A DNA stretch of 64,000 nt from Candidatus Saccharimonadota bacterium (GTDB taxonomy: Bacteria > Patescibacteriota > Saccharimonadia > Saccharimonadales > UBA4665): the NCBI GenBank assembly GCA_027365775.1, contig DAHXLX010000017.1, positions 26,351 to 90,350 on the forward strand. Reading direction: 5' to 3'. Below, one piece after another: positions 2,976 to 48,366 of the stretch. How positions within the stretch are numbered: the stretch's first letter is position 1; every line of letters starts with the position of its first letter. A program made the translations under genes and the position numbers. The notes below the pieces were generated by a model. The model did no database searches, was not told the origin of the DNA, and saw nothing but the letters and a program-made list of their open reading frames with translations.

Positions 2976-4425
2976 GAGATACCTGATTTAAGTCAACGAT
3001 ACCATTGGCGGCCTGACTAAACGTAAAATACGAATGATAATCAGGAGCGAAGAACGGCTTGTACGCCGGTAAAGCCGGGGTCAAGGTTTGATGATTAGTG
3101 TCATCATAGTCGGTGACCATAAGTTTGCCGCCACTGACATAGTCAAGCCGGTCGCCATCCATCCAGTTCACATGAGTCTGGGGACCATCTAAAGGTTGGG
3201 TAGTCAAGTAGTGATATGCAGAGTCACCATAAATGTCATATATCGCAAAATTATTGCCATTTTCTGCCAGGATAAACTGAGCGGTCGGCGCAAAAGAAAG
3301 ATAGGTCGGATCAACAATTTTAATTGCTCGGAAGGCTGAAATCGCCGGTTGAGTCGAAGACGCTATTTGAAGATTAGGATTCAGATAAATATAGACGTAA
3401 CTATCGGCGCTATCGGCTATAGCGGCATAAAGATTGCCATTGTATCCTGCCATGTCCAACAGGTAAGTCGTCGCCTGAGGCATATAACGTACGAAATAAT
3501 CTTTGCCGCTAACATCTAACATAACCTTGACCTGTCCGGCTGGTGCGCCACCCTGAGTAACGAATAAAAGCTCGTTCGAACCGTAACTCTTATATGCCAG
3601 AACGCCTGTTTCAATCTGAGTCGGGGTTGGATTGCCGATTATTGCCGTGGACAGTGTCTGGGTTGAAGAATCATAAAAATAAAACTGGTTATATTTAAGA
3701 TTATTAAAGCTGACCGAAGTCGGATTAACGTTAAAGTTACGGTTTAAATTAATCGATTGATTCGGGTTCTGAGTGTCCAACTCAATAAATTCCTGATTGC
3801 CGTCATAGATATGGTCCAGCAACAGGTGTTGGTTGTCGTCCGCCCAGCCGATGACTTGCCAACTCTGGCTGATTTGCGCCGGACTTAAAAGTCCGGCCGG
3901 TAAGCTTAACGTAGTCGGCGTGGCCGTCGGGTCGGTTAGATTATAGAGGTAAAAACTGCCGAAACTGCCGGGTACCGATACCACCAGATACTGCTGGCCC
4001 GGGCTTTGGGTCGCGACTTCCGGAGCACCGTTAAACTTTGCAATGTTAATAGAATGTAATTTGGTTGGAAAGAGCAGCGGATAGTCATAATGAATGACCG
4101 TGCCACCAAAGACTGTTATCACGTGTTTCCACGGCCGATAGCCGGGAGCGGTTAATTTAAACTTATAAACACCCGAGGGGATAGTTAAGCGAGTATTGGT
4201 TGTTGCAGCATTTAAGACACCATTTATATATATCGAAGCCGGATTGGGTTGGCTGGACAAAAAAATCATACCATTCTGTATTACTTTGCCGTTCTTGACA
4301 CCGTAACCGTATGCTTGCCAGAGCAAGATAACACAGGTGAAGGCAATGGCTATGGCCACGAGCGAATAGCCTGTCCACAGGAAAAGACGATAGCGTCGCT
4401 GCTTCTTGGGGTCTAAATATTCCAT
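2962..4425 (-). CDS. PEGA domain-containing membrane-anchored protein
   Basis: An N-terminal TM is followed by a PEGA-type module (SQPNPASIYINGV...TIPSGVYKFKLTAPGYRPWKHVITV), then a large beta-rich extracellular region. Confidence 0.7.
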   Translation of the reverse strand: MEYLDPKKQRRYRLFLWTGYSLVAIAIAFTCVILLWQAYGYGVKNGKVIQNGMIFLSSQPNPASIYINGVLNAATTNTRLTIPSGVYKFKLTAPGYRPWKHVITVFGGTVIHYDYPLLFPTKLHSINIAKFNGAPEVATQSPGQQYLVVSVPGSFGSFYLYNLTDPTATPTTLSLPAGLLSPAQISQSWQVIGWADDNQHLLLDHIYDGNQEFIELDTQNPNQSINLNRNFNVNPTSVSFNNLKYNQFYFYDSSTQTLSTAIIGNPTPTQIETGVLAYKSYGSNELLFVTQGGAPAGQVKVMLDVSGKDYFVRYMPQATTYLLDMAGYNGNLYAAIADSADSYVYIYLNPNLQIASSTQPAISAFRAIKIVDPTYLSFAPTAQFILAENGNNFAIYDIYGDSAYHYLTTQPLDGPQTHVNWMDGDRLDYVSGGKLMVTDYDDTNHQTLTPALPAYKPFFAPDYHSYFTFSQAANGIVDLNQVSLIAS

Positions 4426-4594
4426 GTCATATATAAAATAAATCTTATATTGGTACCAAAGTTACATTAAGAGTAATCAAAATCCCAAAACTTAACCTTA
4501 ATTTTAGATACACTTGCAGGTTAGTACAAGTAGGATTAAGATGGACTCAACGAATCGTTTTGGTTATGCTAAAACAATTATCAAGAGAAGCTAA

Positions 4595-5644
4595 GTGGAT
4601 AAGAAACTGAGGGCAACCATTAATCTAAACGGCAAGCGCTATAACGCCATAACCGGACAACAGCTCGCGGCCAGCTCATACAAAATGGCAAACATAGATG
4701 GCATATTAAAACGTCCCGCACACAAAAATTATTCAGCTGTTGATTCAACGGTACCTAACGGTCAAAAAAAATCAAACCGTATCGCCCAACATAACATCAA
4801 ACGACCGTCTTCAGCTAAAACACTAATGCGTAATAGTGTTAAGAAACCTGCCAAGAACAAACCATTAATCGCCAAGGTCAATCAGGAACTGACCGTTAAC
4901 AAGTCTGACCTGATAAAGACTTCACCGATGTTCGGCAAGATTGATCATCGACTAGCCAGTCGAGCCAAGGCAATTAAACTTAACAGCAACATAAGCCGGT
5001 TCGGAAGTGAAGTAAAGAATATATCCGGCAGTTTCAATCCATATCGACCGCCACGGCAACAACTAGAACCGCCAATAACCCAGACCAAACGAAAGCCGGA
5101 TATTTTCGAAGCTGCAATAGAGAGAGCCACCAGCCATGAACTACCGCCCTTAACCAAAAAGGAGCTCAAGGCTTTAAACGGTCAAACACCATCAAGCAGA
5201 AGTAAGCTTTTTTATGGTATGTTCGTGCTGCTACTCATAGCGGTTGGCGGTTATGGACTATATGCAAACATGCCCACGGTGATGGTAAAATTTGCCGACA
5301 TGCGCGCCGGTTTTGATGCCAGTTTACCAAGCCACCGACCAGCCGGATACAACTTGGCGTCGGTCGATTATGGTCCGGGCACGGTAAAGCTCAACTATCG
5401 GAACAAAAACCACAGCTTCACATTGACGGAGCATTCATCTAACTGGGATAGTGTCACGCTAGTCAGCAGTGTTATTGCACCAACTCACGGATCTGGGTAC
5501 AAACAGATATCGGTCGCCGGTCAAACCGTCTACCTATATGGACATAACCAAGCGACATGGGTATCGAGCGGTATACTGTATCAGGTTCAGGGCAGGGGCG
5601 GCCTAACCGCCAATCAAATAGCTAAGCTTGCCGCCTCACTTTAG
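4595..5644 (+). CDS. hypothetical single-pass membrane protein (C-terminal DUF4367-like pattern)
   Basis: GTG start, basic N-terminal region and a central TM (LFYGMFVLLLIAVGGYGLY). The C-terminal ~130 aa end in ...WVSSGILYQVQGRGGLTANQIAKLAASL, resembling anti-sigma-associated DUF4367 domains. The assignment is from memory. Confidence 0.5.
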   Translation: MDKKLRATINLNGKRYNAITGQQLAASSYKMANIDGILKRPAHKNYSAVDSTVPNGQKKSNRIAQHNIKRPSSAKTLMRNSVKKPAKNKPLIAKVNQELTVNKSDLIKTSPMFGKIDHRLASRAKAIKLNSNISRFGSEVKNISGSFNPYRPPRQQLEPPITQTKRKPDIFEAAIERATSHELPPLTKKELKALNGQTPSSRSKLFYGMFVLLLIAVGGYGLYANMPTVMVKFADMRAGFDASLPSHRPAGYNLASVDYGPGTVKLNYRNKNHSFTLTEHSSNWDSVTLVSSVIAPTHGSGYKQISVAGQTVYLYGHNQATWVSSGILYQVQGRGGLTANQIAKLAASL

Positions 5645-17137: not shown

Positions 17138-18475
17138 ATGAATGTATATGAGATTTCGGATTTTGGGCTTGGTTTAATTATTGTTGTACTGGTTTTGATA
17201 ATTATCAATAAGAACCACAAATCATTGCCAAATTCAGGCGAGAATCTAGAGAACTATCTAAGGGACGAAAAACAGAAATCAGCTATCATCCTTAACGCAA
17301 TTGATGACGGCGTAATGCTTATAGACAATAATGGTATTATCCAGTTATTCAACCCCGGTGCGGTCAAGATTTCCGGCTGGCCGGCGGACGAAGCCAGAAA
17401 ACTAGATTACAAATCGGTATTGAAACTTGTTAACGATAAAGGTGAACCGTATAACGTTCAGCAAGATCCGATAGCCAGGATATTCAACGATCCGTCCAAT
17501 ACCATAAGAGACAATAACGCCAATCTGGAAACTCGTAGCGGCAAACAGCTTCCGCTATCCTTAAGTGTCTCACCACTTGTCGATCAAAAACGGCAGATGA
17601 CCGGTGCGGTCGCAATTTTTCGCGACATCACCCAGGAAAGGCAGGAAGAAAAGCAGCGTTCGGAGTTTATAAGCACAGCCAGCCATGAGATGCGGACACC
17701 GGTAGCCGCGATCGAGGGCTATTTGGCTTTAGCGCTTAATGATAAGGTCAGCACAGTCGACAGCCGGGCTAAGCAGTACTTAGAGAAGGCCCATGAATCA
17801 ACCCAACATCTGGGTAAATTGTTCCAGGACTTACTCACGTCCGCCAAAGCCGAAGACGGAAGGTTAACATCGCATCCGATATCGATCGAGTTAGGAGAAT
17901 TCTTAGAACAATTAAGCAACGATTTACGGTTTGCGGCGGACAAAAAAGGTTTGGCGCTTGAATTTAGTTTAGGTTCCAGTGAAACCATTGATGCAACCCA
18001 AAAAAATACAGCCGGATTTAAAGTCATTAAGCCCTTATATTACGTGCTTGCCGATCCGGATCGATTACGCGAGGTAATCACTAATCTGTTTGATAATGCG
18101 GTCAAGTACACCGACGAGGGCAAAATAACCCTGGGATTAACCGGCGATCCAAAGATCGTTCAGATATACATCAAAGATACAGGAGTTGGCATACCGGCCG
18201 AAGACATACCGCATTTATTCCAGAAATTCTATAGGGTAGACAATTCAGCCACCAGAACAATCGGCGGCACGGGACTGGGACTATACATTTGTCGTAAAAT
18301 TGTCGAATTGTATCAGGGTAGAATATGGGTCGAAAGTACTATCGGAAAAGGTTCGACATTCTTTATTAACTTTCCAAGGTTATCGACTGAACAAGCAGAA
18401 GCCGAAAAACGTAGCGAGGCAGCCGGTAACGGTGTAAACCCGATTACAAGTATAACCACACACATGTTACAATAA
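17138..18475 (+). CDS. sensor histidine kinase (TM + PAS + HisKA + HATPase_c)
   Basis: H-box STASHEMRTPVAAIEGY, N-box ITNLFDNAVKYT, G-boxes KDTGVGI and GGTGLGLYICRKIVELYQG. Confidence 0.88.
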   Translation: MNVYEISDFGLGLIIVVLVLIIINKNHKSLPNSGENLENYLRDEKQKSAIILNAIDDGVMLIDNNGIIQLFNPGAVKISGWPADEARKLDYKSVLKLVNDKGEPYNVQQDPIARIFNDPSNTIRDNNANLETRSGKQLPLSLSVSPLVDQKRQMTGAVAIFRDITQERQEEKQRSEFISTASHEMRTPVAAIEGYLALALNDKVSTVDSRAKQYLEKAHESTQHLGKLFQDLLTSAKAEDGRLTSHPISIELGEFLEQLSNDLRFAADKKGLALEFSLGSSETIDATQKNTAGFKVIKPLYYVLADPDRLREVITNLFDNAVKYTDEGKITLGLTGDPKIVQIYIKDTGVGIPAEDIPHLFQKFYRVDNSATRTIGGTGLGLYICRKIVELYQGRIWVESTIGKGSTFFINFPRLSTEQAEAEKRSEAAGNGVNPITSITTHMLQ

Positions 18476-18514
18476 TGCTAACGTATATGCGTTAAACTAA
18501 AAGGATATAGATAG

Positions 18515-19858
18515 ATGGCAAAAGTACTGCTCGTCGAAGATGATAATAACCTCAGAGAGATATATGAGGCTCGTTTGCAAGCCGAGGGGTATACGATTGC
18601 CTCTGCTAAAGACGGGGAAGAAGCATTAGTTGTCGCCAAGGAAGAAAAGCCGGATTTAATTATTTCCGATGTAATGATGCCAAAAATAAGCGGCTTCGAA
18701 ATGTTGGACATTCTCCGTAACACACCGGAGCTTAAAGACACCAAAGTGATCATGCTAACTGCATTGGGCCAAGCGGAAGACCAAACCCGGGCCAATAAGC
18801 TTGGTGCCGACCGTTATCTAGTGAAATCGCAAGTGACTTTGGAAGATATCGTAAAAGTATCACATGAATTATTAGGTGAAGATGATCCATCTACTGCCGA
18901 TAGCGAAGTAGAGTCACCAACTGTAACTACAACTACCACACAAGCAACCGCACCAGCCAGCCAGGAATCAACCGCAACTGCGGTACAGGATACGCCCGCA
19001 CCCACACCGGCCGTCGAACCGGTTGCAGTCACACCCGAACCAGAACCAACACCACAAGACGCCATCGAGCTGCCGTCGCCACACCAAAACAATACACCGA
19101 CAGCAGAGCCGGTTACATCATCGGACAGTCCTTCAGCCTTGCAGGCCGATGATCAAATCGCTAACAACAATCAAATCAATCAAACTATAAATACGTCCTT
19201 AAACCAATCGCCACCCCAACCATTGTCAACGCCACCAGACAATACCGCTCAACCGTTTAACATGCCAGAGCCTACAGCTGACCCTCTCCAATCTGCTACA
19301 CCCCAAACCGACAACCAAGCTACGCTTCAGGACATGCCAACAACTCCGAACCTGCAAATAGCCATAGATGAAAGCGGTAAATTATCTCAAACAGAAGCCG
19401 AAGAAAATACAGTGATGAATCAACAAATTGCCGATTTTCTGGAGCATACACCAGATACTTCGGATATGGCACCGACCAACCAACCTTCAGTAAGCACCAC
19501 TGCAGCCATGGACAGTCAACCAACCATTGCCCAAGCCGCCAACGATCAAACATTAGCCCAGGCGGTAAATGATTTAATGTCAGCTAATCCCGCCGCCCAA
19601 CCGACGCCTGAGCCTCAACCGGATGCACCGGCCGTCCCAGAGCCACCCGAGCAATCCAGCGAACCCGAAGTGCATCCGACCAATATTGTCGGTCAAAGGG
19701 TCATTCTACCGCCCAAAGATGACCAAAAGAAAAGCCTGAATCAACTGTTATCCGAAGAGGCGGCCAAGGAATCTGCGCAACAGCAAATGGCGGCTACAAA
19801 CCAACCGATCGTTAACCGGCCCTATGACCCTTCCGATCCGAACAATATCGCTCTATAA
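18515..19858 (+). CDS. response regulator receiver domain fused to ~325-aa Pro/Thr/Gln-rich low-complexity tail
   Basis: Canonical receiver over residues 1-120 (VEDD, IISDVMMPKISG, MLTA, VKS). The rest has no recognisable output domain. Confidence 0.85.
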   Translation: MAKVLLVEDDNNLREIYEARLQAEGYTIASAKDGEEALVVAKEEKPDLIISDVMMPKISGFEMLDILRNTPELKDTKVIMLTALGQAEDQTRANKLGADRYLVKSQVTLEDIVKVSHELLGEDDPSTADSEVESPTVTTTTTQATAPASQESTATAVQDTPAPTPAVEPVAVTPEPEPTPQDAIELPSPHQNNTPTAEPVTSSDSPSALQADDQIANNNQINQTINTSLNQSPPQPLSTPPDNTAQPFNMPEPTADPLQSATPQTDNQATLQDMPTTPNLQIAIDESGKLSQTEAEENTVMNQQIADFLEHTPDTSDMAPTNQPSVSTTAAMDSQPTIAQAANDQTLAQAVNDLMSANPAAQPTPEPQPDAPAVPEPPEQSSEPEVHPTNIVGQRVILPPKDDQKKSLNQLLSEEAAKESAQQQMAATNQPIVNRPYDPSDPNNIAL

Positions 19859-19867
19859 TCACTACCG

Positions 19868-20545
19868 ATGAGGATAAATGCCTTCGTAGCGCAAGCAACA
19901 GGTATAGGCAGGCGGAAAGCCGATAAACTCATTCAGTCGGGAAGAGTCAGCATTGGTAATAAAATCGCGGTCAATGGCGATAAAGTCAATCAATCCGATC
20001 AGGTATTTATTGATGGTAAAACTGTAAATTTGAAGCTCAACTACACGACTATAGCCCTAAATAAGCCGACCGGTTATGTTGTCAGTCGGAACGGGCAGGG
20101 CGCAAAAACTATTTACGAACTGCTGCCCAGGAACTATCACCACCTTAAACCTATCGGTAGGTTGGATAAGGATTCCAGCGGATTATTGATACTTACGGAT
20201 AATGGTCAACTCGCCTACAGATTGTCGCATCCCAGCAACAACAAGCTAAAAATATACTCGATTACACTGAATAAGCGTTTGTTAGACCGGCATCTTCGGC
20301 AAATAAAGATTGGTGTCAAATTAAACGACGGCCTCAGTTATCTTGGTATTAACGAACTGTCACCCGACCGAAAAAAAATGGTTATAAACTTAAGCGAAGG
20401 CCGCAACCGACAGATCCGCCGCACCTTTGCACATCTGGGGTATAACGTAATAGCATTGCATCGTATAGCATTCGGCGAATATCAGCTGAATGATTTAGGT
20501 AGCGGCAAATATAAAGTCCTCAATGTCCCACTAGAGGAGAAATAG
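19868..20545 (+). CDS. RsuA/RluB-family pseudouridine synthase
   Basis: N-terminal S4 domain (RINAFVAQATGIGRRKADKLIQSGRVSI) and catalytic motif GRLDKDSSGLLILTDNG. Confidence 0.85.
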   Translation: MRINAFVAQATGIGRRKADKLIQSGRVSIGNKIAVNGDKVNQSDQVFIDGKTVNLKLNYTTIALNKPTGYVVSRNGQGAKTIYELLPRNYHHLKPIGRLDKDSSGLLILTDNGQLAYRLSHPSNNKLKIYSITLNKRLLDRHLRQIKIGVKLNDGLSYLGINELSPDRKKMVINLSEGRNRQIRRTFAHLGYNVIALHRIAFGEYQLNDLGSGKYKVLNVPLEEK

Positions 20546-20568
20546 CATATATCCTATACAATATCCGT

Positions 20569-21939
20569 ATGAGCAATACTAAACTCCCGATCGTTGCACT
20601 AGTCGGACGGACAAACGTCGGTAAATCAAGTCTGTTTAACGCAATCCTTGAAAGAAGGGAGGCAATTGTCGCGAGGGAAACCGGTACTACCCGGGACAGC
20701 ATATCCGCAAAGGCCAGTTTTCACAGCCATCAGTTTTGGATAGTCGATACAGCCGGTGTCAAGGATCCTGAAGACGATTTCGAAGAAACCATTCAATCGC
20801 AAATCCGACAGGCAAGCGAGGATGCCGATGTCATCCTCGTAGTAGTTGAAGCCAATGCGGTAATTAGTCACGAAGACAGACAGGTAGCTACTCTAGCACT
20901 AAAAAGTAAAAAACCAGTGATTCTGGTAGTCAATAAAATCGACAAATCGGATAGCAGTGAAATCTACCGATTTGCTGCTTTGGGCATTAAAGACATAGCA
21001 CCGACAAGCGTGACTCAATCAAAAGGAGTTTATGATCTGCTTGAGAAAATTAGCAGACATATTACTAAAGTACCGATTAAAGCTGAACGTGAACGGCTCA
21101 AGATAGCCTTACTTGGCCGACCCAATGTCGGCAAATCCAGTCTTTTCAATACACTGCTTAACAAACAGCAGGCAATAGTCGCCGAGCGAGCAGGCACCAC
21201 CAGGGATATAAACCGGGCGGTTATTCGTTATATGAACCAGGAGATAGAACTAATGGACACCGCCGGTATTCGACGACCAGGCAGAATTGAGCAGGGCGTC
21301 GAAAAGTTCAGTGTTTTAAGATCACTAGCGGCAATTGACGAAGCAGATATCTGCTTTGTGCTAATCACCGCCGAGGAAGCAAGCGTAGCACTGGATCAGA
21401 AAATAGCCGGTATGGTCAAAGACGCGGGCAAGGGCCTGGTATTGGTAATAAGCAAATGGGATTCCGTCCAGTCGGCAGGAAACTTAACTCATGATCAGTT
21501 TCTAGCCCGGATTACCCGAGATTATGAATTTGTATATTGGGCACCGCTGGTTGTTACTTCCGCCATTAGCGGACAAAATATTACCAAACTCTATGAATTG
21601 GCTATGCAAATCTACGATGCCAGAGCCCAAAGGATACCGACAAAGAAATTAAATGAATGGCTGGGACGGACTATCCGGGCACATCCGCCAGCTGGCTTAA
21701 AGGCCCGGACTCCAAAACTAAATTACATCATTCAGGAAAACGATAATCCAATCCCCGCCTTCAAGATTTTTGGCAGTCAAACGGCATACATACACTGGAG
21801 TTACCGGCGCTATCTGGAACACTCGTTACGTGATACGTACAGGTTCTTTGGTAATCCGGTGCAGTTATGGTTTATTGAGAAACATGTCGCCCACAAACAC
21901 GGCGTCAAACCAACTAATGCCGAAAACGAGGACAACTAA
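20569..21939 (+). CDS. der: ribosome-biogenesis GTPase Der (EngA)
   Basis: Two tandem GTPase domains (GRTNVGKSSLFN..DTAG..NKID and GRPNVGKSSLFN..DTAG..SKWD) plus a KH-like C-terminus. Confidence 0.92.
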   Translation: MSNTKLPIVALVGRTNVGKSSLFNAILERREAIVARETGTTRDSISAKASFHSHQFWIVDTAGVKDPEDDFEETIQSQIRQASEDADVILVVVEANAVISHEDRQVATLALKSKKPVILVVNKIDKSDSSEIYRFAALGIKDIAPTSVTQSKGVYDLLEKISRHITKVPIKAERERLKIALLGRPNVGKSSLFNTLLNKQQAIVAERAGTTRDINRAVIRYMNQEIELMDTAGIRRPGRIEQGVEKFSVLRSLAAIDEADICFVLITAEEASVALDQKIAGMVKDAGKGLVLVISKWDSVQSAGNLTHDQFLARITRDYEFVYWAPLVVTSAISGQNITKLYELAMQIYDARAQRIPTKKLNEWLGRTIRAHPPAGLKARTPKLNYIIQENDNPIPAFKIFGSQTAYIHWSYRRYLEHSLRDTYRFFGNPVQLWFIEKHVAHKHGVKPTNAENEDN

Positions 21940-22580
21940 TGGCCTGGTTACAAAAACGACCCCAAGTAGCATTGCCGATTAATTACTATACAGTCGGACA
22001 AAACACGGTTTTATTGTTAGTTGGTCTAGGTAACCCGGGCACCAAATATGATAACACCCGTCACAATATCGGTTTTGCATGTATCGATGCTTTTGTCGAT
22101 AAGTATGATGAGATGTCCGAATGGGTAGGCAAGAGAGACTTAAAGTGCTTGATGTCAACCGGTCGAATCGGTGAGAATCAGGTGATTGCAATAAAGCCAA
22201 CAACGTACATGAACCTTAGCGGAGAAGCAGTATCACTGGTAATGAGTTTTTATAAGCTCCAGCTAGCGCATATAGCAGTCGTCCACGATGAGCTGGATAT
22301 CGACTTCGGCTATATTCGCACCCGCCTCGGTGGCAGTGCTGCCGGCCACAACGGTATCAAATCGATCACAGATCATATAGGGGAAGATTACGCACGCATA
22401 AGAATCGGAATCGGACCGAAGCGACCAGCGCAAATCGATAGTGCCGACTTTGTCTTGCAGCCGTTTAACGATACGGAGAAACGGCAATTGGACAACCTGA
22501 AACAGGAAGTAACGGCAATTATTAGTGAATTTGTTTATGCCAAAACAATCAGCCAAGAAACCAGAACATTTATCGTGTAA
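21939..22580 (+). CDS. pth: peptidyl-tRNA hydrolase
   Basis: LLVGLGNPGTKYDNTRHNIGF, YMNLSGEAV and HDELD motifs. The start overlaps the der stop (TAATG). Confidence 0.9.
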   Translation: MAWLQKRPQVALPINYYTVGQNTVLLLVGLGNPGTKYDNTRHNIGFACIDAFVDKYDEMSEWVGKRDLKCLMSTGRIGENQVIAIKPTTYMNLSGEAVSLVMSFYKLQLAHIAVVHDELDIDFGYIRTRLGGSAAGHNGIKSITDHIGEDYARIRIGIGPKRPAQIDSADFVLQPFNDTEKRQLDNLKQEVTAIISEFVYAKTISQETRTFIV

Positions 22581-22581
22581 T

Positions 22582-22625
22582 ACAAAAACAGACCGACGAG
22601 AGGGGGTGGGCACCGCTCGTCAGTC
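22582..22625 (-). terminator. intrinsic terminator (minus-strand orientation)
   Basis: On the minus strand, the GAC-T-GACGAG ... CTCGTC-G-GTC stem is followed by TCTGTTTTTGT. The T-tract is present only in this orientation. Confidence 0.5.
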
Positions 22626-22924
22626 TGTCTCAGCGGACAGAAGAACTGTCCGCAAACAAACTCCCTTCAAGCCCACCCGGGCGAAACATCATGCAAAAAA
22701 ATAAGGCACGTGTCTTTACTATAAGTAAAACCGTTCAGGCTCGCGCTTGATCGGGGGATCACTTAAAGGGGTTAGTATGCTTTAGAACGATGCCTTAAAG
22801 GCACCTAAAGGACGTAGTAGTGGAGGGTAACAACTACTTTATATGGTCCCGATCTAAAGCAATCTAACATTTGTTAGAATGGGGTAAAAGGTGCGTAAAT
22901 CCTAATAAATTAAGACTTACAGCT
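22582..22924 (-). ncRNA. candidate ~340-nt structured RNA of unknown class
   Basis: It lies between a consensus promoter and the terminator above and has stops in all frames. Several nested helices are visible: GATCGGG/CCCGATC, CTTTAG/CTAAAG, AGTAG/CTACT, GCGGACAG/CTGTCCGC and GGGTGGGC/GCCCACCC. Confidence 0.45.
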
Positions 22925-22928
22925 GGCA

Positions 22929-22957
22929 ATAATAGCAAAATTGTGTTTTTATGTCAA
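22929..22957 (-). promoter_or_regulatory. sigma70-type promoter TTGACA-N17-TATTAT
   Basis: The reverse complement reads GTATTGACATAAAAACACAATTTTGCTATTATTGCCAGCT. The predicted TSS is near 22922-22924. Confidence 0.5.
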
Positions 22958-23025
22958 TACTTTCTAATAATTTCTATATACTGACAAATTCATGTTGTTA
23001 TCATGCTTGTGTTAATATATAATCT

Positions 23026-23211
23026 ATGGGCAATATAAATAAAAAAATAACCATTATGTGTTTCACCGTTCTAGGATTAGTTGGCAGCTGGATTGGCGCC
23101 GCTATGCAGCACAATAATTGGTTCGGTTTATGGAGTAACGTACTGGGCATCGTCGGATCGTTAGTCGGCATCTGGGTAGGTATTATCATCGGCAATTACA
23201 TCGATTCTTAA
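23026..23211 (+). CDS. small two-TM membrane protein (GlsB/YeaQ/YmgE-like pattern)
   Basis: Gly-rich TM helices VLGLVGSWIGAAM and VLGIVGSLVGIWVGIIIG. The start is uncertain, with an alternative ATG at 23056. Confidence 0.45.
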   Translation: MGNINKKITIMCFTVLGLVGSWIGAAMQHNNWFGLWSNVLGIVGSLVGIWVGIIIGNYIDS

Positions 23212-23296
23212 AAATTGTTAGAATCCTCTGTATTCAAACTTAAGATTATTTAAATATTAATTGCATAAAGGTCATATTGTGCTTAAGATGTACGAT

Positions 23297-25582
23297 ATGC
23301 CGAAAAATCTAGTTATAGTGGAAAGCCCAGCTAAAGCACAAACAATCGAGAAATTTTTAGGTAAAGATTACATCGTTAAAAGTAGCTTTGGCCATATCCG
23401 GGACCTCCCTAAAAAGGGCCTAAATATAGACATAGAAAACGGCTTTACACCAAAATACGAAATAAATAGCGACAAAAAGACTGTGGTAAGGGATTTAAAA
23501 AAACTTGCCAAAGGCAGTGAAGTACTGCTGGCAAGTGATGAAGATAGAGAAGGGGAAGCCATTGCCTGGCACTTGACTCAGGCCTTGGATTTGGATCCGA
23601 AGAAAACCAAGCGGATAGTGTTCCATGAAATTACCAAACCGGCAATCGAGCAGGCCATCAAGCATCCCCGCACGCTTGATCTGCGACTGGTAGACGCGCA
23701 ACAGGCGCGACGTGTACTTGACCGGTTGGTAGGTTATGAACTGAGCCCCTTACTTTGGAAGAAAGTTAGAACCGGTTTAAGTGCAGGACGGGTTCAGTCC
23801 GTAGCAGTTAGACTAATTGTTGAACGAGAGCGTGAAATCAGGCAATTCACAGCCGAATCGTCATTCAAGGTCACAGCAATTTTCGAACACAATAATGACT
23901 CGATACCGGCAACACTTAATAGCCCTCTCAAGGACTACGTACAGACTAAAAATTGGTTAACAGAAACAGCATCTGCATCGTTTAAGGTCGTAAATCTGGA
24001 TACGAAGCCAAGCCGAAGAAGTCCTAGCGCACCTTTTACAACCAGTACGCTACAGCAAGAGGCGTCTATAAAGCTCGGCTTCAATGTCAGGCAGACAATG
24101 ACGCTTGCCCAACGCTTGTACGAAGCGGGATTGATTACCTATATGCGTACTGACAGCACGATATTGTCCGATTTGGCAATAAAATCAATTGGCGACTACA
24201 TTAAAAGTCAGTATGGGCAAAGTTACCACAGTGCCAGACAATACAAAACCAGGAATCGAAGCGCCCAAGAGGCGCATGAGGCAATTCGACCAACCAACAT
24301 ATCAACAACAGCCATAGCCGGTGACGGCGGCGAAAAAAAACTTTATGATTTAATTTGGCGTCGGGTTGTTGCGTCACAGATGTCCGAGGCTAGAATATCG
24401 AGAACGGCAATTCAAATAGCGATTTCCAATCAAAAGGAGCTTTTTATTGCCAAGGGTGAAGCACTTGAGTTTGACGGGTATATGAAAGTTTACGGAGGGG
24501 CCAAAGACGATATTGTACTACCGCCGCTTAAAGTTAATGATCCGCTTATTCTAAAGCAGTTGGGTGCCAGAGAGCAATTCAGTCGCGGACCAGCCCGTTA
24601 CAGCGAAGCCGGACTGGTTAAGAAACTAGAGGAGCTGGGCATCGGTAGACCGAGTACCTACGCGCCAACAATAACAACTATCCAATCCCGGGGTTATGTT
24701 GAGAAGCGCGATTTAATGGGTGAACAGCGAAAACTTAAGTTGCTAACAATAAAGGATAAACAAGTCCAGGAATCAGAAGAAGAAGAGACAACAGGAGCGG
24801 ACCGCAACAAACTAGTACCCACGCCAATAGCGGAAGTGACGACAGACTTTTTAACTAAATACTTCTCATCGGTTGTAGATTATGATTTTACCGCCAGAGC
24901 CGAAGAGAACTTCGACGCGATTGCTATGGGCCAGCAAAAGTGGAATGCAATGATTAGTGATTTCTATAAGGATTTTCATCCGTTAATTGAGAGAACCGAA
25001 GATGTGTCAAGGCATGAGGTCTCCCAGGCACGACTGGTGGGCAACGATCCGAACAGTGGCAAACCAATATATGCCCGCTTCGGCCGTTATGGACCAATGC
25101 TTCAGCTTGGCGAAACGACTGAAAAGCAAAAACCAGACTTTGCTCCGTTACCAGAGGGGTCGTCGATCGATTCGATAACGCTTGAACAGGCATTAACAAT
25201 GTTTAGACTGCCGAGAAAAGTAGGTGTTACTGCCGATGGCGAAGAAATCCAGGCAAATATCGGCCGGTTCGGGCCATATATTAAAGTAGGCGGCAAATCG
25301 GTATCGATTAGAGGTCACGATCCGCATAATATTACCCAAGAACAAGCCATATTACTCTATGAAGAAAAATTAAAGAAAGATGCCGAGAAATATATCAAAG
25401 ATCTGGGCCAGGACGTCAAGATATTAAACGGACCCTATGGGCCATATATTACCAACGGTAAAAAAAACGCCAAAATTGATAATAATACTGATCCTACTAC
25501 AATAACCCTGGCTCAAGCTGAGAAAATGCTGGCTAAGGCTCCAGACAAAAAAAGACGATTCAGACGCAAGAAAACAAAGTAG
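23297..25582 (+). CDS. topA: DNA topoisomerase I
   Basis: TOPRIM N-terminus MPKNLVIVESPAKAQTIEKFLG and LASDEDREGEAIAWH, and the catalytic Tyr region LITYMRTDS. The start is chosen at MPKNLVIV rather than the TTG at 23261. Confidence 0.92.
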   Translation: MPKNLVIVESPAKAQTIEKFLGKDYIVKSSFGHIRDLPKKGLNIDIENGFTPKYEINSDKKTVVRDLKKLAKGSEVLLASDEDREGEAIAWHLTQALDLDPKKTKRIVFHEITKPAIEQAIKHPRTLDLRLVDAQQARRVLDRLVGYELSPLLWKKVRTGLSAGRVQSVAVRLIVEREREIRQFTAESSFKVTAIFEHNNDSIPATLNSPLKDYVQTKNWLTETASASFKVVNLDTKPSRRSPSAPFTTSTLQQEASIKLGFNVRQTMTLAQRLYEAGLITYMRTDSTILSDLAIKSIGDYIKSQYGQSYHSARQYKTRNRSAQEAHEAIRPTNISTTAIAGDGGEKKLYDLIWRRVVASQMSEARISRTAIQIAISNQKELFIAKGEALEFDGYMKVYGGAKDDIVLPPLKVNDPLILKQLGAREQFSRGPARYSEAGLVKKLEELGIGRPSTYAPTITTIQSRGYVEKRDLMGEQRKLKLLTIKDKQVQESEEEETTGADRNKLVPTPIAEVTTDFLTKYFSSVVDYDFTARAEENFDAIAMGQQKWNAMISDFYKDFHPLIERTEDVSRHEVSQARLVGNDPNSGKPIYARFGRYGPMLQLGETTEKQKPDFAPLPEGSSIDSITLEQALTMFRLPRKVGVTADGEEIQANIGRFGPYIKVGGKSVSIRGHDPHNITQEQAILLYEEKLKKDAEKYIKDLGQDVKILNGPYGPYITNGKKNAKIDNNTDPTTITLAQAEKMLAKAPDKKRRFRRKKTK

Positions 25583-25682
25583 TTTTTCCACTACCGCAAA
25601 TCTGTTGCATTGCTATAATTCTACAACATCGTCTATGCAAGATAGTCATTATTGTGCTACAATAAACACATAAGGCAATTTT

Positions 25683-25711
25683 TTGACATTTAATAATTAG
25701 TGTTATATAAT
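25683..25711 (+). promoter_or_regulatory. consensus sigma70 promoter TTGACA-N17-TATAAT
   Basis: TTGACA at 25683-25688, an exact 17-nt spacer and TATAAT at 25706-25711, ~54 nt upstream of the 25765 start. Confidence 0.6.
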
Positions 25712-25764
25712 AGAACATCCTAGATCTCTAGCGTTCAAGGGAAGTAGATAAGTATATATATAAG

Positions 25765-26793
25765 ATGTCAGAGAAAATATCGACGAAAAATTTGGTAAAC
25801 GGGGTACTGCAGTCCATAGATCACGATCGTGAAAGAGAGATTGTATCTCGACGTTTTGGCCTATTCGAGCGCAAGGAAACCCTTGAGCAAATAGGAGAAC
25901 TGTTAAGTATTACCCGTGAAAGAGTACGCCAACTCGAAAAAGCTGTTATCCAAAAACTCAAGGCGGCCGGCGAACAGCATAAACTTGCGGGTATCGATGA
26001 TTTTCAAACTCAAATTCTGGCAATAGTAAAAAGCTCAGGCCAGGTAGTACGAATCAGCGAATTGGCTAACCGGTTGGTCGAGGATCCTAACCGTATCGAA
26101 CAATCAAGGTTGGCCTTCCTGTGCGGGCTATGTCCTGATCTTGTATTAATATCTGACGATGATACTTTCTATGCGTGTGTAGCCGATAGACAACAGTATA
26201 GCGAAAAGTCACTTAAAGAGGCGATTGGCAACATTACCAAAACCATCTCTAAGATTGGTGAGCCTAAACCAATCGAATATATCGCTAAACAGGCAGGTAT
26301 AGCCGATATCAAGCATGCCAAAGCATTAGCCGGTGCATCAAAACTACTGACAAGCCTGAATGGACAGTGGGGGCTAGTTAAATGGCCATTAGTTAACCCA
26401 AAGAATATCCGCGACAAAATATATGTTATTTTGAAGGAAAACGGTCGCCATATGCATTTTAACGAAATAGCTGAAGCAATCAAGTCCAGTGAATTCAAAC
26501 GAAAAGACGTAACAACTCAGGCTATACACAATGAATTGATTAAAGACAAGCGATTCGTTCTGATCGGCCGTGGAATCTATGCACTTAAAGAATGGGGTTA
26601 TGAAAAGGGTACTGTGGCTGATATCATTAGCCAGGTACTAAGAGAAGCAAACCAACCGTTACATCGTGATGAAATAGTTAAACGCGTTCTAAAGAGTCGT
26701 TTTGTAAAAGAAACTACAATATTATTAAATTTACAGGGTAAACCACAATTCCGTCGCGTGGCGAAAGCTACTTACGAGTTATCTGACGATTAG
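25765..26793 (+). CDS. sigma-70 region-4-like HTH plus HARE-HTH domain protein
   Basis: ETLEQIGELLSITRERVRQLEKAVIQKLK matches sigma region 4.2. The C-terminal half contains two HARE-HTH-like units (MHFNEIAEAIKS...RFVLIGRGIYALKEWG and LHRDEIVKRVL...FRRVAKATYEL). Confidence 0.68.
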   Translation: MSEKISTKNLVNGVLQSIDHDREREIVSRRFGLFERKETLEQIGELLSITRERVRQLEKAVIQKLKAAGEQHKLAGIDDFQTQILAIVKSSGQVVRISELANRLVEDPNRIEQSRLAFLCGLCPDLVLISDDDTFYACVADRQQYSEKSLKEAIGNITKTISKIGEPKPIEYIAKQAGIADIKHAKALAGASKLLTSLNGQWGLVKWPLVNPKNIRDKIYVILKENGRHMHFNEIAEAIKSSEFKRKDVTTQAIHNELIKDKRFVLIGRGIYALKEWGYEKGTVADIISQVLREANQPLHRDEIVKRVLKSRFVKETTILLNLQGKPQFRRVAKATYELSDD

Positions 26794-40681: not shown

Positions 40682-41374
40682 CTAACTGCTCAAATGTAGA
40701 CTATGCATCAAGTTAACCAATGGTGATAAGTCTTGCGCAAATTTAACCGAGCCATTAATACGGGCAAGAACGTTTGGCTTACCGCTGGCAAACACGATCC
40801 GTAAATATTTTATGTGATCAATCCCGAAACGCCCGCCAGCATTTGACTCAAAAGACATCGCATCGCTATTAAATATAAACCGGCCGCTAGCGGTTAAAGG
40901 CTTACCGTTAGAGTTTGACACTAAGTTGGGGGCATGTCCGGATATTGCAATCATACGGGCGTTAAACCATAGTCTGATAAGCACATTATCGATGTTTAGA
41001 TCATTAAGCCCCTCGAGTGCTGCATGCAACAAATCGAAGTATTCGCTTTCTGCACCTGATTCAGTCAATTTTTCGACGGATGATAACAATTCATAGCCTA
41101 AGCGGACCCGGTCAATACTTTTGATTATCTCCGGGTAATTTGTCTTCAGTCGGGACGATACCAAGGTAGCCAAGTCTCCCTTACCCCTGACAAAATTTAT
41201 ATCATCCACAGTGAACAGCTCTATTCCTCCGGCTAGCTTACTTTTTAGAACACGAGTTCCCCGGGCGACTAACGAGATCTTGCCATAATCCGGGGTAATA
41301 ACCGTTATAATACGATCGGTTTCCCGATAGTTTCGTCGGGACAATACAATGGCACTAGTCCTGAGCTGCAACAT
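40682..41374 (-). CDS. recO: DNA repair protein RecO
   Basis: The N-terminal OB-fold pattern (SAIVLSRRNYRETDRIITVITPDYGKISLVARG) and the size are typical. Confidence 0.8.
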   Translation of the reverse strand: MLQLRTSAIVLSRRNYRETDRIITVITPDYGKISLVARGTRVLKSKLAGGIELFTVDDINFVRGKGDLATLVSSRLKTNYPEIIKSIDRVRLGYELLSSVEKLTESGAESEYFDLLHAALEGLNDLNIDNVLIRLWFNARMIAISGHAPNLVSNSNGKPLTASGRFIFNSDAMSFESNAGGRFGIDHIKYLRIVFASGKPNVLARINGSVKFAQDLSPLVNLMHSLHLSS

Positions 41375-41762
41375 TATTTACCGATAATGAATCCTCGATC
41401 GTTCTAAGCAGCAACACTAGACTGGTCGATGGTTTATAAAGATACTTGCGTACACCAAGATGATCCTGAAGACCGTTGCGGCTGTTGTCGAATTCCATCG
41501 CCGGTACGGAACTTAATATGATTACCGGAATCGTTTGCCAATCAGTATAAGATCGGAACTCGTACAGAAATTCGATGCCACTGTGCCTGACCAACTGTAT
41601 CTCACACACAACTATGTCCGGACATCGTTCATCGGCAGCAATTACAGCCTCTTGGGCTGTCATTACATGACACACATAATAACCCTTGACCCTTAATGCG
41701 CTGGCGTAAACCGACCCAAGGACCTTATCGGGTTCAACTAGTAAGACTACTTTAGCAATCAT
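41355..41762 (-). CDS. receiver-domain protein with Glu at the phospho-acceptor position (pseudo-receiver)
   Basis: It aligns by eye to the other receivers. PDIVVCEIQLVRHSG corresponds to PDLIISDVMMPKISG, so Asp becomes Glu and Pro becomes Val. The Ser/Thr (ILSS) and Lys (YKPS) positions are retained. Confidence 0.7.
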   Translation of the reverse strand: MIAKVVLLVEPDKVLGSVYASALRVKGYYVCHVMTAQEAVIAADERCPDIVVCEIQLVRHSGIEFLYEFRSYTDWQTIPVIILSSVPAMEFDNSRNGLQDHLGVRKYLYKPSTSLVLLLRTIEDSLSVNNVAAQD

Positions 41763-41768
41763 AATCAG

Positions 41769-42488
41769 TCAGACCAATACCAATTGAGATGATGGCCTCA
41801 GGACCACCCCAAGCCCGTACAACTTATGGTGCCGGGATACATTAAGCCTTAAGCTCATGGCTTTAAAAATTGCATCGGCAACAAAGATACCGGCGCCGCT
41901 CGTATGACTTACATCGACTATCGGCTGACGAGAGAGTCCATATAATCGTCTGCCTTTACGCAGTGCATCACTAGTTAGGCCCGGTACGGTTGCATAAACT
42001 CCGGCTACGATACCGTATCGGCAACGATGCGTTGCCAACTGGAGCACGGCTTTATCCTTATTACCTTGTGCCGGCAACGTCTCGATTAAGGCACTGGCGA
42101 TACCGACTATCGCCGATTGCAGGCCTCGCTTGTGGGCAAGAACCGGCCCGTATTTACCGCTAATGTTTAACTCCAGCTGCACGTTATAAAGTCGAGCTAA
42201 GCCGTCCAATTGTTGACAGGCATCATACAATACTGAGGCAACAGATACCGAATCAGGAGTTAACTCAAATTTAAACTGCCGCTGAAGCTGTAATCCCAGG
42301 CTATACGCATCAATTAGATACAACGTATTAGCAGCCAGTGCTTGAATCTGATTTAAATCCGGCTCTAAACCCAACCTGGATAGCTCAACCTGACGAGAAA
42401 TCTGCAATAAAGGTAGCTTCATCTGCTCGGCGATGGATAAGAGCAGCTGCTGTGAAATTTCAGGACCCTGTCGATCTGCCGAATGCAC
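41769..42488 (-). CDS. degenerate histidine-kinase-like protein lacking the H-box His
   Basis: SIAEQMKLPLLQI aligns to TASHEMRTPVAAI, so His becomes Glu. The N-box Asn is lost (IVGIASALIETL). A G2-like remnant remains (SGAGIFVADAIF). There are no TM segments. Confidence 0.5.
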   Translation of the reverse strand: MHSADRQGPEISQQLLLSIAEQMKLPLLQISRQVELSRLGLEPDLNQIQALAANTLYLIDAYSLGLQLQRQFKFELTPDSVSVASVLYDACQQLDGLARLYNVQLELNISGKYGPVLAHKRGLQSAIVGIASALIETLPAQGNKDKAVLQLATHRCRYGIVAGVYATVPGLTSDALRKGRRLYGLSRQPIVDVSHTSGAGIFVADAIFKAMSLRLNVSRHHKLYGLGVVLRPSSQLVLV

Positions 42489-42562
42489 TTTAAATATGTC
42501 CCCTCCTACCCTATCAGTAGCCCAAATTATACTACCAGCCGGTTAAGCCGTCCAAAAACAAA

Positions 42563-43222
42563 CTAAGGCTGGAAACTAATTTGTGGCAGAATCTGGCCAA
42601 CAAATTGGTTGACGTATTGCGGTTGTTCGGTCCATATCTCAAGCGTATTTGTCCTTAAAGGCAGCATAACCATTACTCCCGAAATATTAGGTTCAATCTG
42701 CCCGCTAATTTTGACACCTACAACACTAGGCACCTTAGGTAATGAATAGGGGGTTATTGTAAGATTACCAGGCTGTTGTTGACTAGTGTAATTCGATAAC
42801 TGGGAACTGTAGGGATTGGCATTAACTTCGATTCTCAACGCATAGAGACTGTCTGTTCCACCAATAGCAGGTACGACCACCGGATTAAAATATTCATCTA
42901 ATGGATTATTGTTTCCCGTGTTATCTACATAACCGCTCCAGTTTTTCGGATAAGCGACATATATACTTCCATACTGCGGCGGTCCGGTATAGGACGTGTA
43001 CGGATTCTGGCTTTCCAATTGAAACTTCTGATTGAGCAGGTTATCTTCCTTGGTTTTCTCATTTTGGACCGCCATAGCTATCAAAGCGTTAACGTTATCT
43101 TTATAATACTGACGGCCGTTAAAAGCCCATACTCCGAATATAATTGCCGCAACTGCAATTATGCTAACGACCATAAACGGTAACAGTAATCTAATAAACC
43201 CTTCGGAATTCAGCCGTTTCAT
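42563..43222 (-). CDS. hypothetical membrane-anchored protein
   Basis: A 219-aa ORF with an N-terminal TM (LLLPFMVVSIIAVAAIIFGVWAF). No motif was recognised. Confidence 0.5.
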   Translation of the reverse strand: MKRLNSEGFIRLLLPFMVVSIIAVAAIIFGVWAFNGRQYYKDNVNALIAMAVQNEKTKEDNLLNQKFQLESQNPYTSYTGPPQYGSIYVAYPKNWSGYVDNTGNNNPLDEYFNPVVVPAIGGTDSLYALRIEVNANPYSSQLSNYTSQQQPGNLTITPYSLPKVPSVVGVKISGQIEPNISGVMVMLPLRTNTLEIWTEQPQYVNQFVGQILPQISFQP

Positions 43223-47650: not shown

Positions 47651-47953
47651 ATGTCCCACGTAAAAGCCGGCGGTACAGCCAAAAACATCCATGATTCACC
47701 AGGCCAACGGCTTGGCGTCAAACTATACGGTGGCCAACAGGTTAAAGTCGGCCAAGTAATTGTCCGACAAGTCGGCATGACTAAACGAGCCGGCGCCGGT
47801 ACACTTATGAGTCGTAACTATACCATCCATGCAGCAAAAAACGGTATCGTCCAGTTCAAAACCCGGAAAGTACGACTTTTTTCCGGTAAATCCGTTCGGC
47901 GAACAGAGGTCAGTGTAATTTCGGTTTTTCTAAGACACGACGTCACCGATTAG
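47651..47953 (+). CDS. rpmA: 50S ribosomal protein L27
   Basis: HVKAGGTAKNIHDSPGQRLGVKLYGGQQV...IVRQ.G matches the L27 signature. Confidence 0.9.
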   Translation: MSHVKAGGTAKNIHDSPGQRLGVKLYGGQQVKVGQVIVRQVGMTKRAGAGTLMSRNYTIHAAKNGIVQFKTRKVRLFSGKSVRRTEVSVISVFLRHDVTD

Positions 47954-48351
47954 TTCTCTAGATGGTGCCTGATCCGATCAATTACATCCGCAATTACTAC
48001 TTGCGACTTTACAAGGTACTCATCGACACCTAAACTCTCTGCCCGCTGTTTATCACTTTCCTGGCTTAATGCCGTGAGCATGATAACTTTAAGATTAGCG
48101 GTTTCCGGCGTATTCCTCAGTATATCCAGTACATCAAAACCACTAACCTTCGGCATCATTACGTCCAACAACACCAAGTCCGGATGGTAGCTAAGTGCTG
48201 CCGCCAACGCATCCTCACCGTTAGCTACTCGACGTACGTCAAAACCTTCAGCTTGTATCCGAGTTACATAGACATTGGCTAAAGCGTCGTCATCCTCTAC
48301 AAGCAGTATCCGTTTGGGGTTTTTATTTCCGCCGGCTGGTTGTTCATCCAT
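47950..48351 (-). CDS. response regulator, receiver domain only
   Basis: Canonical VEDDD, LLDVMMPKVSG, MLTA and VKS motifs. It looks like a close paralog of the receiver of 18515-19858. Confidence 0.85.
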   Translation of the reverse strand: MDEQPAGGNKNPKRILLVEDDDALANVYVTRIQAEGFDVRRVANGEDALAAALSYHPDLVLLDVMMPKVSGFDVLDILRNTPETANLKVIMLTALSQESDKQRAESLGVDEYLVKSQVVIADVIDRIRHHLEN

Positions 48352-48366
48352 AATGCTAAAGCTACC

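Follow-up and report, generated by a model that had tools for sequence, protein, structure and literature searches.

A histidine-kinase-like protein and a co-encoded receiver-like protein that lack phosphotransfer residues in Saccharimonadia

In Caulobacter crescentus, the kinase homologue DivL carries Tyr550 in place of the phospho-accepting histidine and works by a kinase-independent route, in which its DHp domain binds a single-domain receiver (PMC4211667). The histidine is absent from 0.9% of HisKA domains, and the acceptor aspartate from 2% of receivers (PMC12632262). Kinase homologues without one or more kinase functions have been termed pseudo-histidine kinases (Collins & Childers 2021, as cited in PMC12632262), and PF00072 domains without the acceptor Asp, including those of plant pseudo-response regulators (PRRs), are known as pseudo-receivers or aspartate-less receivers (Maule et al. 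2015, PMC4395418; PMC12632262). Glu is the commonest acceptor replacement and can act as a partial phospho-Asp mimic (PMC12632262), and one PDB entry (2jb9) is entitled 'PhoB receiver domain constitutively-active double mutant D10A and D53E'. The working of bacterial pseudo-receivers has been called 'a mystery', and nearly all characterised ones are orphans; among 20 characterised bacterial atypical regulators, only two are non-orphans, and a pseudo-kinase partner is described for none of them (PMC12632262). Here we describe a 239-aa kinase-like protein (PK) and a 135-aa receiver-like protein (RR), encoded side by side directly upstream of recO in a 64,000-nt stretch of a Candidatus Saccharimonadota genome (GCA_027365775.1, contig DAHXLX010000017.1, positions 26,351 to 90,350), which is referred to as the window. 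Pseudo-kinases and aspartate-less receivers are known singly; what is new is that both partners of one operon are predicted to be dead for phosphotransfer. In the literature, we found no account of a co-encoded pseudo-kinase/pseudo-receiver pair with both partners dead, nor of this pair or family in Saccharibacteria.

By analogy of their parts, DivL-DivK is the nearest working analogue of PK and RR. DivL and PK share a DHp-CA kinase core without the phospho-His, both DivL and DivK were among the top structural matches, and one divergent PK clade also carries Tyr at the His column. DivL, however, keeps its H, N, G1, F and G2 boxes, a transmembrane (TM) segment and several PAS domains, whereas PK is a bare 239-aa DHp-CA protein without the N and G1 boxes; DivK is an ordinary receiver that can be phosphorylated and whose state is read by DivL, whereas RR is predicted to be non-phosphorylatable. 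The best structural matches of PK and RR, the canonical HisKA kinase HK853 and the single-domain receiver RR468 of Thermotoga maritima, differ in that His260, Asn376/380 and the G1/G2 motifs of HK853, and Asp9/10 and Asp53 of RR468, are all replaced in PK and RR except for part of G2. With the engineered PhoB D10A/D53E mutant, the natural RR shares the same two kinds of change. RR belongs with the pseudo-receivers or aspartate-less receivers as defined (Maule 2015; PMC12632262), being a PF00072 match without the acceptor Asp, and differs from the characterised atypical regulators as a stand-alone domain that is co-translated with a degenerate kinase and bears a family-specific invariant alpha3 face.

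Fold and catalytic columns of the two proteins

PK (41769-42488, minus strand, GTG start), RR (41355-41762, minus strand) and recO (40682-41374, minus strand; Pfam RecO_N/RecO_C and TIGR00613) were arranged as three head-to-tail open reading frames (ORFs), with the RR start 6 nt past the PK stop and a 20-nt overlap between the RR 3' end and the recO start. The original prediction had described both ORFs and the overlap as found here, and all of the peptides that it quoted were present at verified coordinates. The two kinases and two other receivers of the window, which had served as its references, were bona fide and canonical by Pfam, with values of 1e-23 to 1e-25 for the receivers.

The kinase homology of PK was not visible in single-sequence and narrow-profile searches. 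No Pfam or NCBIfam family was matched (none in Pfam at E ≤ 1, with the HisKA and HATPase_c gathering scores not reached), phmmer against PDB sequences returned chance matches to CD44 only, and hhalign of a 40-member alignment of close homologues against one kinase of the window found nothing. The PK family profile, searched against PDB sequences, had CpxA (4biz) as its top match at a non-significant E of 0.14. The H-box of 4biz_A reads 'ISEELRTPL', with Glu at the His position unlike other CpxA entries, and it probably ranked first because both carry Glu there. The link to kinases thus needed a structure model and a more divergent alignment.

The AlphaFold2 model of PK (40 homologues; pLDDT 81, pTM 0.81) had two long helices (residues 7-38 and 45-71) and, after them, an alpha/beta domain, giving the layout of a DHp helical hairpin (about residues 7-71) and a degenerate CA/GHKL domain (about residues 79-230). 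Foldseek matched the model over its full length to HK853 in RR468 complexes (E 2.8e-9, TM-score 0.62-0.66); DivL (4q20), CpxA, WalK and EnvZ chimeras were also matched, and 288 matches had E ≤ 1e-3. HisKA was the only Pfam family matched by several divergent PK members (6/47; best 6.6e-5, with 23 bits where the cutoff is 26.9), and their best HATPase_c match had a value of 0.0016. A hidden Markov model built from four real kinases matched PK family members at 6e-9 and 3e-8, with 'aEELKLPL' aligned to 'sHELRTPL', and hhalign of a 47-member PK alignment against the four true kinases gave a probability of 94.7% and an E of 6.2e-8 over 216 columns. PK is soluble, without a TM or other hydrophobic segment (maximum KD19 1.29), as had been supposed. 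These results support PK as a histidine-kinase homologue without the phospho-His, the N-box Asn and the G1 motif. Judged from its sequence, it would be classed as a pseudo-histidine kinase, i.e., a kinase homologue without the phospho-site and ATP-binding residues that is co-translated with a receiver-fold protein.

The catalytic columns of PK were assigned from the 47-member hhalign alignment, using HK853 numbering. The H-box remnant SIAEQMKLPLLQI (42399-42437, minus strand) placed Glu21 (42426-42428) on His260 and Pro26 on the H-box Pro. In the N-box remnant IVGIASALIETL (42075-42110, minus strand), Gly129 and Ala133 fell on the two N-box Asn and Glu136 on the N-box Lys. Residues Ala166-Thr167-Val168-Pro169-Gly170 were aligned with the G1 motif D-N-G-I-G, where the alignment could be one residue off; Asp occupies column 167 in 54 of 81 orthologues, though the G1 glycines are missing. 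In the G2-like remnant SGAGIFVADAIF (41865-41900, minus strand), Gly198 and Gly200 fell on two G2 glycines, and Ala204 was invariant. The assignments made by eye in the original prediction (Glu for the phospho-His, a missing N-box Asn and a G2-like remnant in PK) were therefore right, and the alignments placed neither a real His at the phospho-site column of PK nor a real Asp at the acceptor column of RR.

The same kinds of substitution were found throughout the family. Among 81 close orthologues, E21, K24 and P26 were invariant and column 133 was Ala in 67, Ser in 12 and Thr in two, never Asn. In a set of 140 full-length representatives (50% identity), the His column was E115 D9 Q9 H1 R1 A1 and column 133 was S44 A32 V27 T13 G10 E4 N3; the sole His-bearing representative (P0223) was still without the N and G1 boxes. 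A search for canonical relatives using the most kinase-like member, P0234, gave 13 matches, none of them canonical, and revealed a more divergent clade with Tyr, Phe or Leu at the His column ('LAYELKHPL'). When the His form of the PK-family H-box signature was scanned in 241 million metagenome records, seven matches were obtained, all to unrelated sensor kinases of 500 or more aa; in calibration, the Glu form of the pattern matched 43 of 82 family loci.

PK also carries a conserved set of Arg- and His-rich motifs that is not found in true kinases. It consists of the family-invariant HRCRYG (residues 154-159; 42012-42029, minus strand), in a beta-hairpin of the CA-like domain (strands 147-156 and 159-166), and the likewise invariant RQP, from Arg187 in the lid-length segment (41922-41930, minus strand), and SRH, from Ser218 in the next strand (41829-41837, minus strand). 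In addition, DHp helix 1 is conserved well past the H-box, from Gln29 to Glu35, a region that in real kinases holds the partner-specificity positions.

RR matched Pfam Response_reg (PF00072) with 40.4 bits against a gathering score of 30.2 (3.8e-10). Its PDB sequence matches by phmmer were led by 6azr_B (4.7e-10), a chain of an HK853-RR468 complex, followed by RR468 (3dge_C, 1.3e-9), and also included KdpE and DivK. The AlphaFold model (43 homologues; pLDDT 88.7) had five strands and five helices in the (beta-alpha)5 receiver layout, and its best Foldseek matches were RR468, RpaA, VicR, PhoB and DivK (1mb3, 1m5t), with TM-scores of 0.75-0.80 for RR468, DivK and PhoB; the RR468 match had an E of 1e-8 and TM-scores of 0.78/0.86. 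As HK853 was the best match of PK, the best structural matches of the two proteins are a cognate pair.

In the phmmer alignment, PDLIVLDIMMPVMDG of RR468 was paired with PDIVVCEIQLVRHSG of RR (41577-41621, minus strand), which places Glu54 (41601-41603, minus strand), at the end of beta3, on the acceptor Asp53. The Asp-Asp metal-binding pair is replaced by Glu10-Pro11-Asp12 (41727-41735, minus strand), with 'LLVDDS' of RR468 aligned to 'LLVEPD'. The switch residues are kept, namely Ser84 (at the Thr column, with Ser or Thr in all homologues), Tyr107 and Lys110; the original prediction had named the Glu replacement and the retained Ser and Lys, and the RR468 alignment and Pfam match bear it out. 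Glu54 was present in 75 of 76 and in 121 of 121 homologues; Glu-Pro-Asp was invariant in 77 of 77, with E10 and P11 present in 121 of 121 and Asp12 nearly invariant. The receivers of the Tyr/Phe/Leu clade, which matched Pfam at 5e-16 and 3.5e-13, also have Glu54 (VVLEIAMPKHNG). The sole orthologue with Asp54 (VVIVDLQLVEHSG) was that of locus L075 (CAXSFI010000001.1, downstream of 4001-4696), which still has Glu-Pro-Asp after beta1 and is paired with a PK bearing Glu21. Glu54 of RR is thus a deep, fixed feature, while the residue at the His column of PK merely has to be non-His.

The original prediction had also proposed a coordinated pair of acidic, potentially phosphomimetic residues. The RR half of that proposal stands, given the near-universal Glu54, whereas the PK half does not: an acidic residue at the His column is not required because other clades have Asp, Gln, Tyr, Phe or Leu there.

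Conservation specific to the RR family, not seen in real receivers, extended from His60 to Trp75, covering almost all of the beta3-alpha3 loop and alpha3, and included Val86-Pro-x-x-Glu-Phe after beta4. The segment HSGIEFLYEFRSYTDW (41538-41585, minus strand), comprising the loop and helix alpha3 (residues 62-71 in the model), was nearly fully invariant in the homologue alignments, and the alpha3 region is a candidate partner-binding face.

Family spread, gene order and selection

At 90% identity, the PK family fell into at least 1054 clusters; at 50% identity, it had 487 representatives, of which 233 had values below 1e-30. Among the 150 matches listed, lengths were about 225-255 aa (typically about 235), with a few shorter fragments. 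The named sources were metagenome-assembled genomes (MAGs) of Saccharimonadia/Patescibacteria. Homologues in the first search were annotated only as 'hypothetical protein', and the divergent P0234 has a kinase name from JGI. Some protein names and four loci (L029, L035, L042 and L078) placed a Saccharimonadia-type block under Verrucomicrobiia, Dormiibacterota, Methylomirabilota or Polaromonas; the contigs under these foreign names are probably mis-binned MAG contigs.

The block of methyltransferase, TM protein, PK, RR, RecO and glycyl-tRNA synthetase (GlyRS) recurred almost without exception in 80 species-representative genomes, and the PK and RR frames were intact in all 80 species. The Tyr/Phe/Leu clade shares this gene block, which runs there from ribosomal protein L27 to GlyRS, and the PK-RR pairing was kept in all loci with both positions readable, including this most divergent clade. 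The spacing between PK and RR was mostly -8 to +12 nt among relatives, and RR and recO overlapped by 4 nt (ATGA) in most loci and by 14 nt in seven. The TGA stop codon of PK is in frame with the RR start and two codons away from it (…LVLV*LIMIAK…; 41763-41771, minus strand), such that stop-codon read-through would yield a hybrid-kinase-like fusion of kinase-like and receiver domains; because the spacing varies in relatives, this shared frame is probably incidental.

Pairwise ratios of nonsynonymous to synonymous substitution rates (dN/dS) were 0.02-0.13 for PK, 0.05-0.19 for RR, 0.03-0.20 for RecO and 0.04-0.21 for the upstream TM protein. PK was the slowest evolving of the four, and both PK and RR are under strong purifying selection.

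Gene order in the cultivated Southlakia epibionticum ML1 is the same as in the window, i.e., xseA-xseB-methyltransferase-hypothetical-histidine kinase-response regulator-RecO-GlyRS (Wang et al. 2023, PMC10633639 Table S1). The positional orthologues of PK and RR there are SEML1_0246 (annotated as a histidine kinase with a HAMP domain) and SEML1_0247 ('response regulator'), with genes of almost the same length (708 and 366 bp, respectively) at the same position in the block. In transposon sequencing (Tn-seq) at T0/T1/T2, with genes called essential (ES), growth-defective (GD) or non-essential (NE), they scored GD/GD/ES and NE/GD/ES, respectively, and both are class II essential by the definition of that study; RecO (SEML1_0248) scored NE/NE/GD and GlyRS (SEML1_0249) GD/ES/ES (PMC10633639). 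Polarity on glyS is an unlikely explanation of the essentiality of SEML1_0246 and SEML1_0247, because insertions in the downstream recO were tolerated.

Proposed mechanism and competing explanations

The explanation that we favour, with moderate confidence, is that PK and RR are a core, selected gene pair of Saccharimonadia and work by protein binding, as a pseudo-kinase/pseudo-receiver module dead for phosphotransfer. A two-component pair would have been converted in both partners to a module that transfers no phosphate, with PK keeping the kinase body (DHp hairpin and GHKL-type domain). PK should neither bind Mg-ATP normally nor autophosphorylate, because it is without the His, the Mg-binding Asn and G1; RR would not be phosphorylatable in the usual way, because it is without the acceptor Asp and has Pro at the second metal ligand. 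The absence of these residues from both proteins is in keeping with the original idea that both partners had lost phosphotransfer chemistry. RR is probably locked near an 'on-like' state, given that Glu can be a partial mimetic, that the Ser/Thr-Tyr-Lys switch is kept and that, by analogy, PhoB D10A/D53E is described as constitutively active; the longer side chain of Glu54 most likely holds RR in or near this conformation permanently. PK, RR and RecO come from one tightly coupled operon.

The DHp helical hairpin normally dimerises and docks the receiver. In the favoured explanation, contact between PK and RR would be made by the conserved DHp helix 1 on one side and the alpha1/active-site face of RR on the other, and the output would be protein-protein binding through RR helix alpha3 and the Arg/His-rich set on the CA-like domain. 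The conserved surfaces of the two proteins may thus represent maintained docking together with new binding surfaces. With no phospho-state left, the two proteins would form a complex that is either constitutive or gated in some other way.

Several points weigh against this explanation. The loss of activity in PK and RR is a prediction read from their residues. An ATP-lid-length segment with invariant residues persists in PK along with the G2 glycines, and these could still bind nucleotide or another ligand. The His column of PK is not always acidic, being Tyr, Phe, Leu or Gln in other clades, so that Glu21 itself may be unimportant. Inter-protein mutual information between PK and RR (corrected by average product, APC; 72 pairs, effective number of sequences, Neff, 55) gave no interface signal and no DHp/alpha1 enrichment; it was dominated by clade-specific N-terminal differences and was uninformative. 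Finally, SEML1_0246 matched HATPase_c at 1e-9 and HisKA at 5e-8, and SEML1_0247 matched Response_reg at 6e-22 (PMC10633639 Table S2), far better than the pair of the window (none and 3.8e-10, respectively). The SEML1_0247 score beats those of the Tyr-clade receivers and nears those of the canonical ones. The pair of the oral clade is thus possibly less degenerate, and perhaps even catalytically competent; if it is competent, its essentiality says less about the dead version.

PK and RR might instead modulate canonical two-component systems, with PK forming heterodimers with real kinases or sequestering receivers and RR competing for kinase docking. Canonical kinases and receivers do coexist in the window, DivL links two pathways in a similar manner (PMC4211667), and such binding competitors have been hypothesised for pseudo-two-component proteins (Collins & Childers, as cited in PMC12632262). 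We nevertheless regard this as unlikely: PK and RR are a co-translated and co-conserved unit with strongly conserved docking-region residues of its own, and the canonical systems are not genomically linked to it.

A similarly low probability is assigned to PK and RR acting independently and remaining adjacent through an unbroken old operon, for example with RR as a stand-alone adaptor and PK as a ligand-binding GHKL protein. This would fit the lack of a covariation signal between the two, and the universal Glu of RR set against the drifting His column of PK suggests different constraints. Against it stand the pairing in all readable loci, most divergent clade included, the start/stop coupling within mostly -8 to +12 nt and the similar Tn-seq profiles of SEML1_0246 and SEML1_0247.

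Phosphotransfer through non-canonical residues, for example from His154 or His220 to Asp12, appears very improbable. These three residues are invariant in the close family, and the G2 glycines and the lid-length segment persist; however, the N-box Asn and the G1 motif are absent, H154 and H220 become Tyr, Phe or Arg in many representatives and lie, in the model, in beta strands of the CA domain rather than on the DHp domain, and Pro11 removes a metal ligand. The literal 'fossil' of the original prediction, a decaying two-component relic, would account for the catalytic residues gone from both partners and for the absence of a Pfam match for PK, but it is refuted to near certainty by dN/dS far below 1, the gene order and intact frames in 80 species, the family-wide substitutions, hundreds of divergent members, many invariant family-specific residues and positional orthologues that are essential in culture.

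In its widest form, which we put forward tentatively and at somewhat less than even probability, the favoured explanation would give Saccharimonadia a class-wide, fitness-critical 'pseudo two-component system', in which both partners gave up phosphoryl transfer and yet remained an obligate co-translated pair, acting as a new constitutive or ligand- or metal-gated protein-protein switch. This system may have arisen by steps from an essential pair that the oral clade would still keep in canonical form; the gradation of Pfam scores between clades suggests that present-day genomes may still record the individual steps. If this is true, some of the smallest bacterial genomes would hold the first natural example of a cognate pair whose two members are both pseudo-enzymes. 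Conservation of the pair spans an entire class of epibionts that are ultrasmall and genome-reduced and that lose most of the genes they can do without. In the only Saccharibacterium amenable to genetics, its positional orthologues are essential, and its PK half is at present a 'hypothetical protein' without a family model. The pair marks a core, uncharacterised function of Patescibacteria and lends itself, as a natural and tractable system, to the question of what role a two-component scaffold has when phosphorylation is taken away.

Neighbouring genes and other features of the window

The gene order around the pair was LPG_synthase_TM protein, XseA, XseB, class I methyltransferase (with a TM helix), 219-aa TM-anchored protein, PK, RR, RecO, class II GlyRS, NYN and PIF1 helicase. 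The 219-aa protein (42563-43222, minus strand) has one N-terminal TM helix in a TM scan and no family match in Pfam, and the ORF is co-conserved directly upstream of PK in nearly all loci; it may functionally go with the PK-RR pair. Its position in S. epibionticum is occupied by the hypothetical SEML1_0245, which is class I essential (ES/ES/ES), Patescibacteria-enriched and Mog1p/PsbP-like by DPAM, and which follows xseA (SEML1_0242), xseB (SEML1_0243) and a methyltransferase gene (SEML1_0244) (PMC10633639 Tables S1/S2). A promoter-like site, TGGACG-17-TATAAT (42526-42554, minus strand), lies in the 74-nt gap 5' of the PK start; it is a consensus match only, and the count of promoter-like sites in the region was not above the shuffled expectation. 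For the GlyRS downstream of recO, identity to the protein of the window was bimodal across the 80 loci (L001-L080; about 46-53% versus 68-80%), whereas PK identity varied smoothly, a pattern that points to two lineages of GlyRS, or to a replacement, at one and the same locus within Saccharimonadia.

A 138-aa canonical single-domain receiver is encoded a few genes upstream (47953-48366, minus strand), at the same position as SEML1_0238 of S. epibionticum, so that synteny with the cultivated strain reaches beyond the block studied. Elsewhere in the window, a 447-aa protein (18515-19858, plus strand) begins with a canonical receiver (Pfam 1e-25), after which about 340 residues have no Pfam match; as it stands directly after a PAS-HisKA-HATPase_c kinase, it is taken to carry an uncharacterised output domain. 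The AT skew at 18000-26000 was unusually high (0.13-0.27, compared with about 0.0-0.1 elsewhere in the window).

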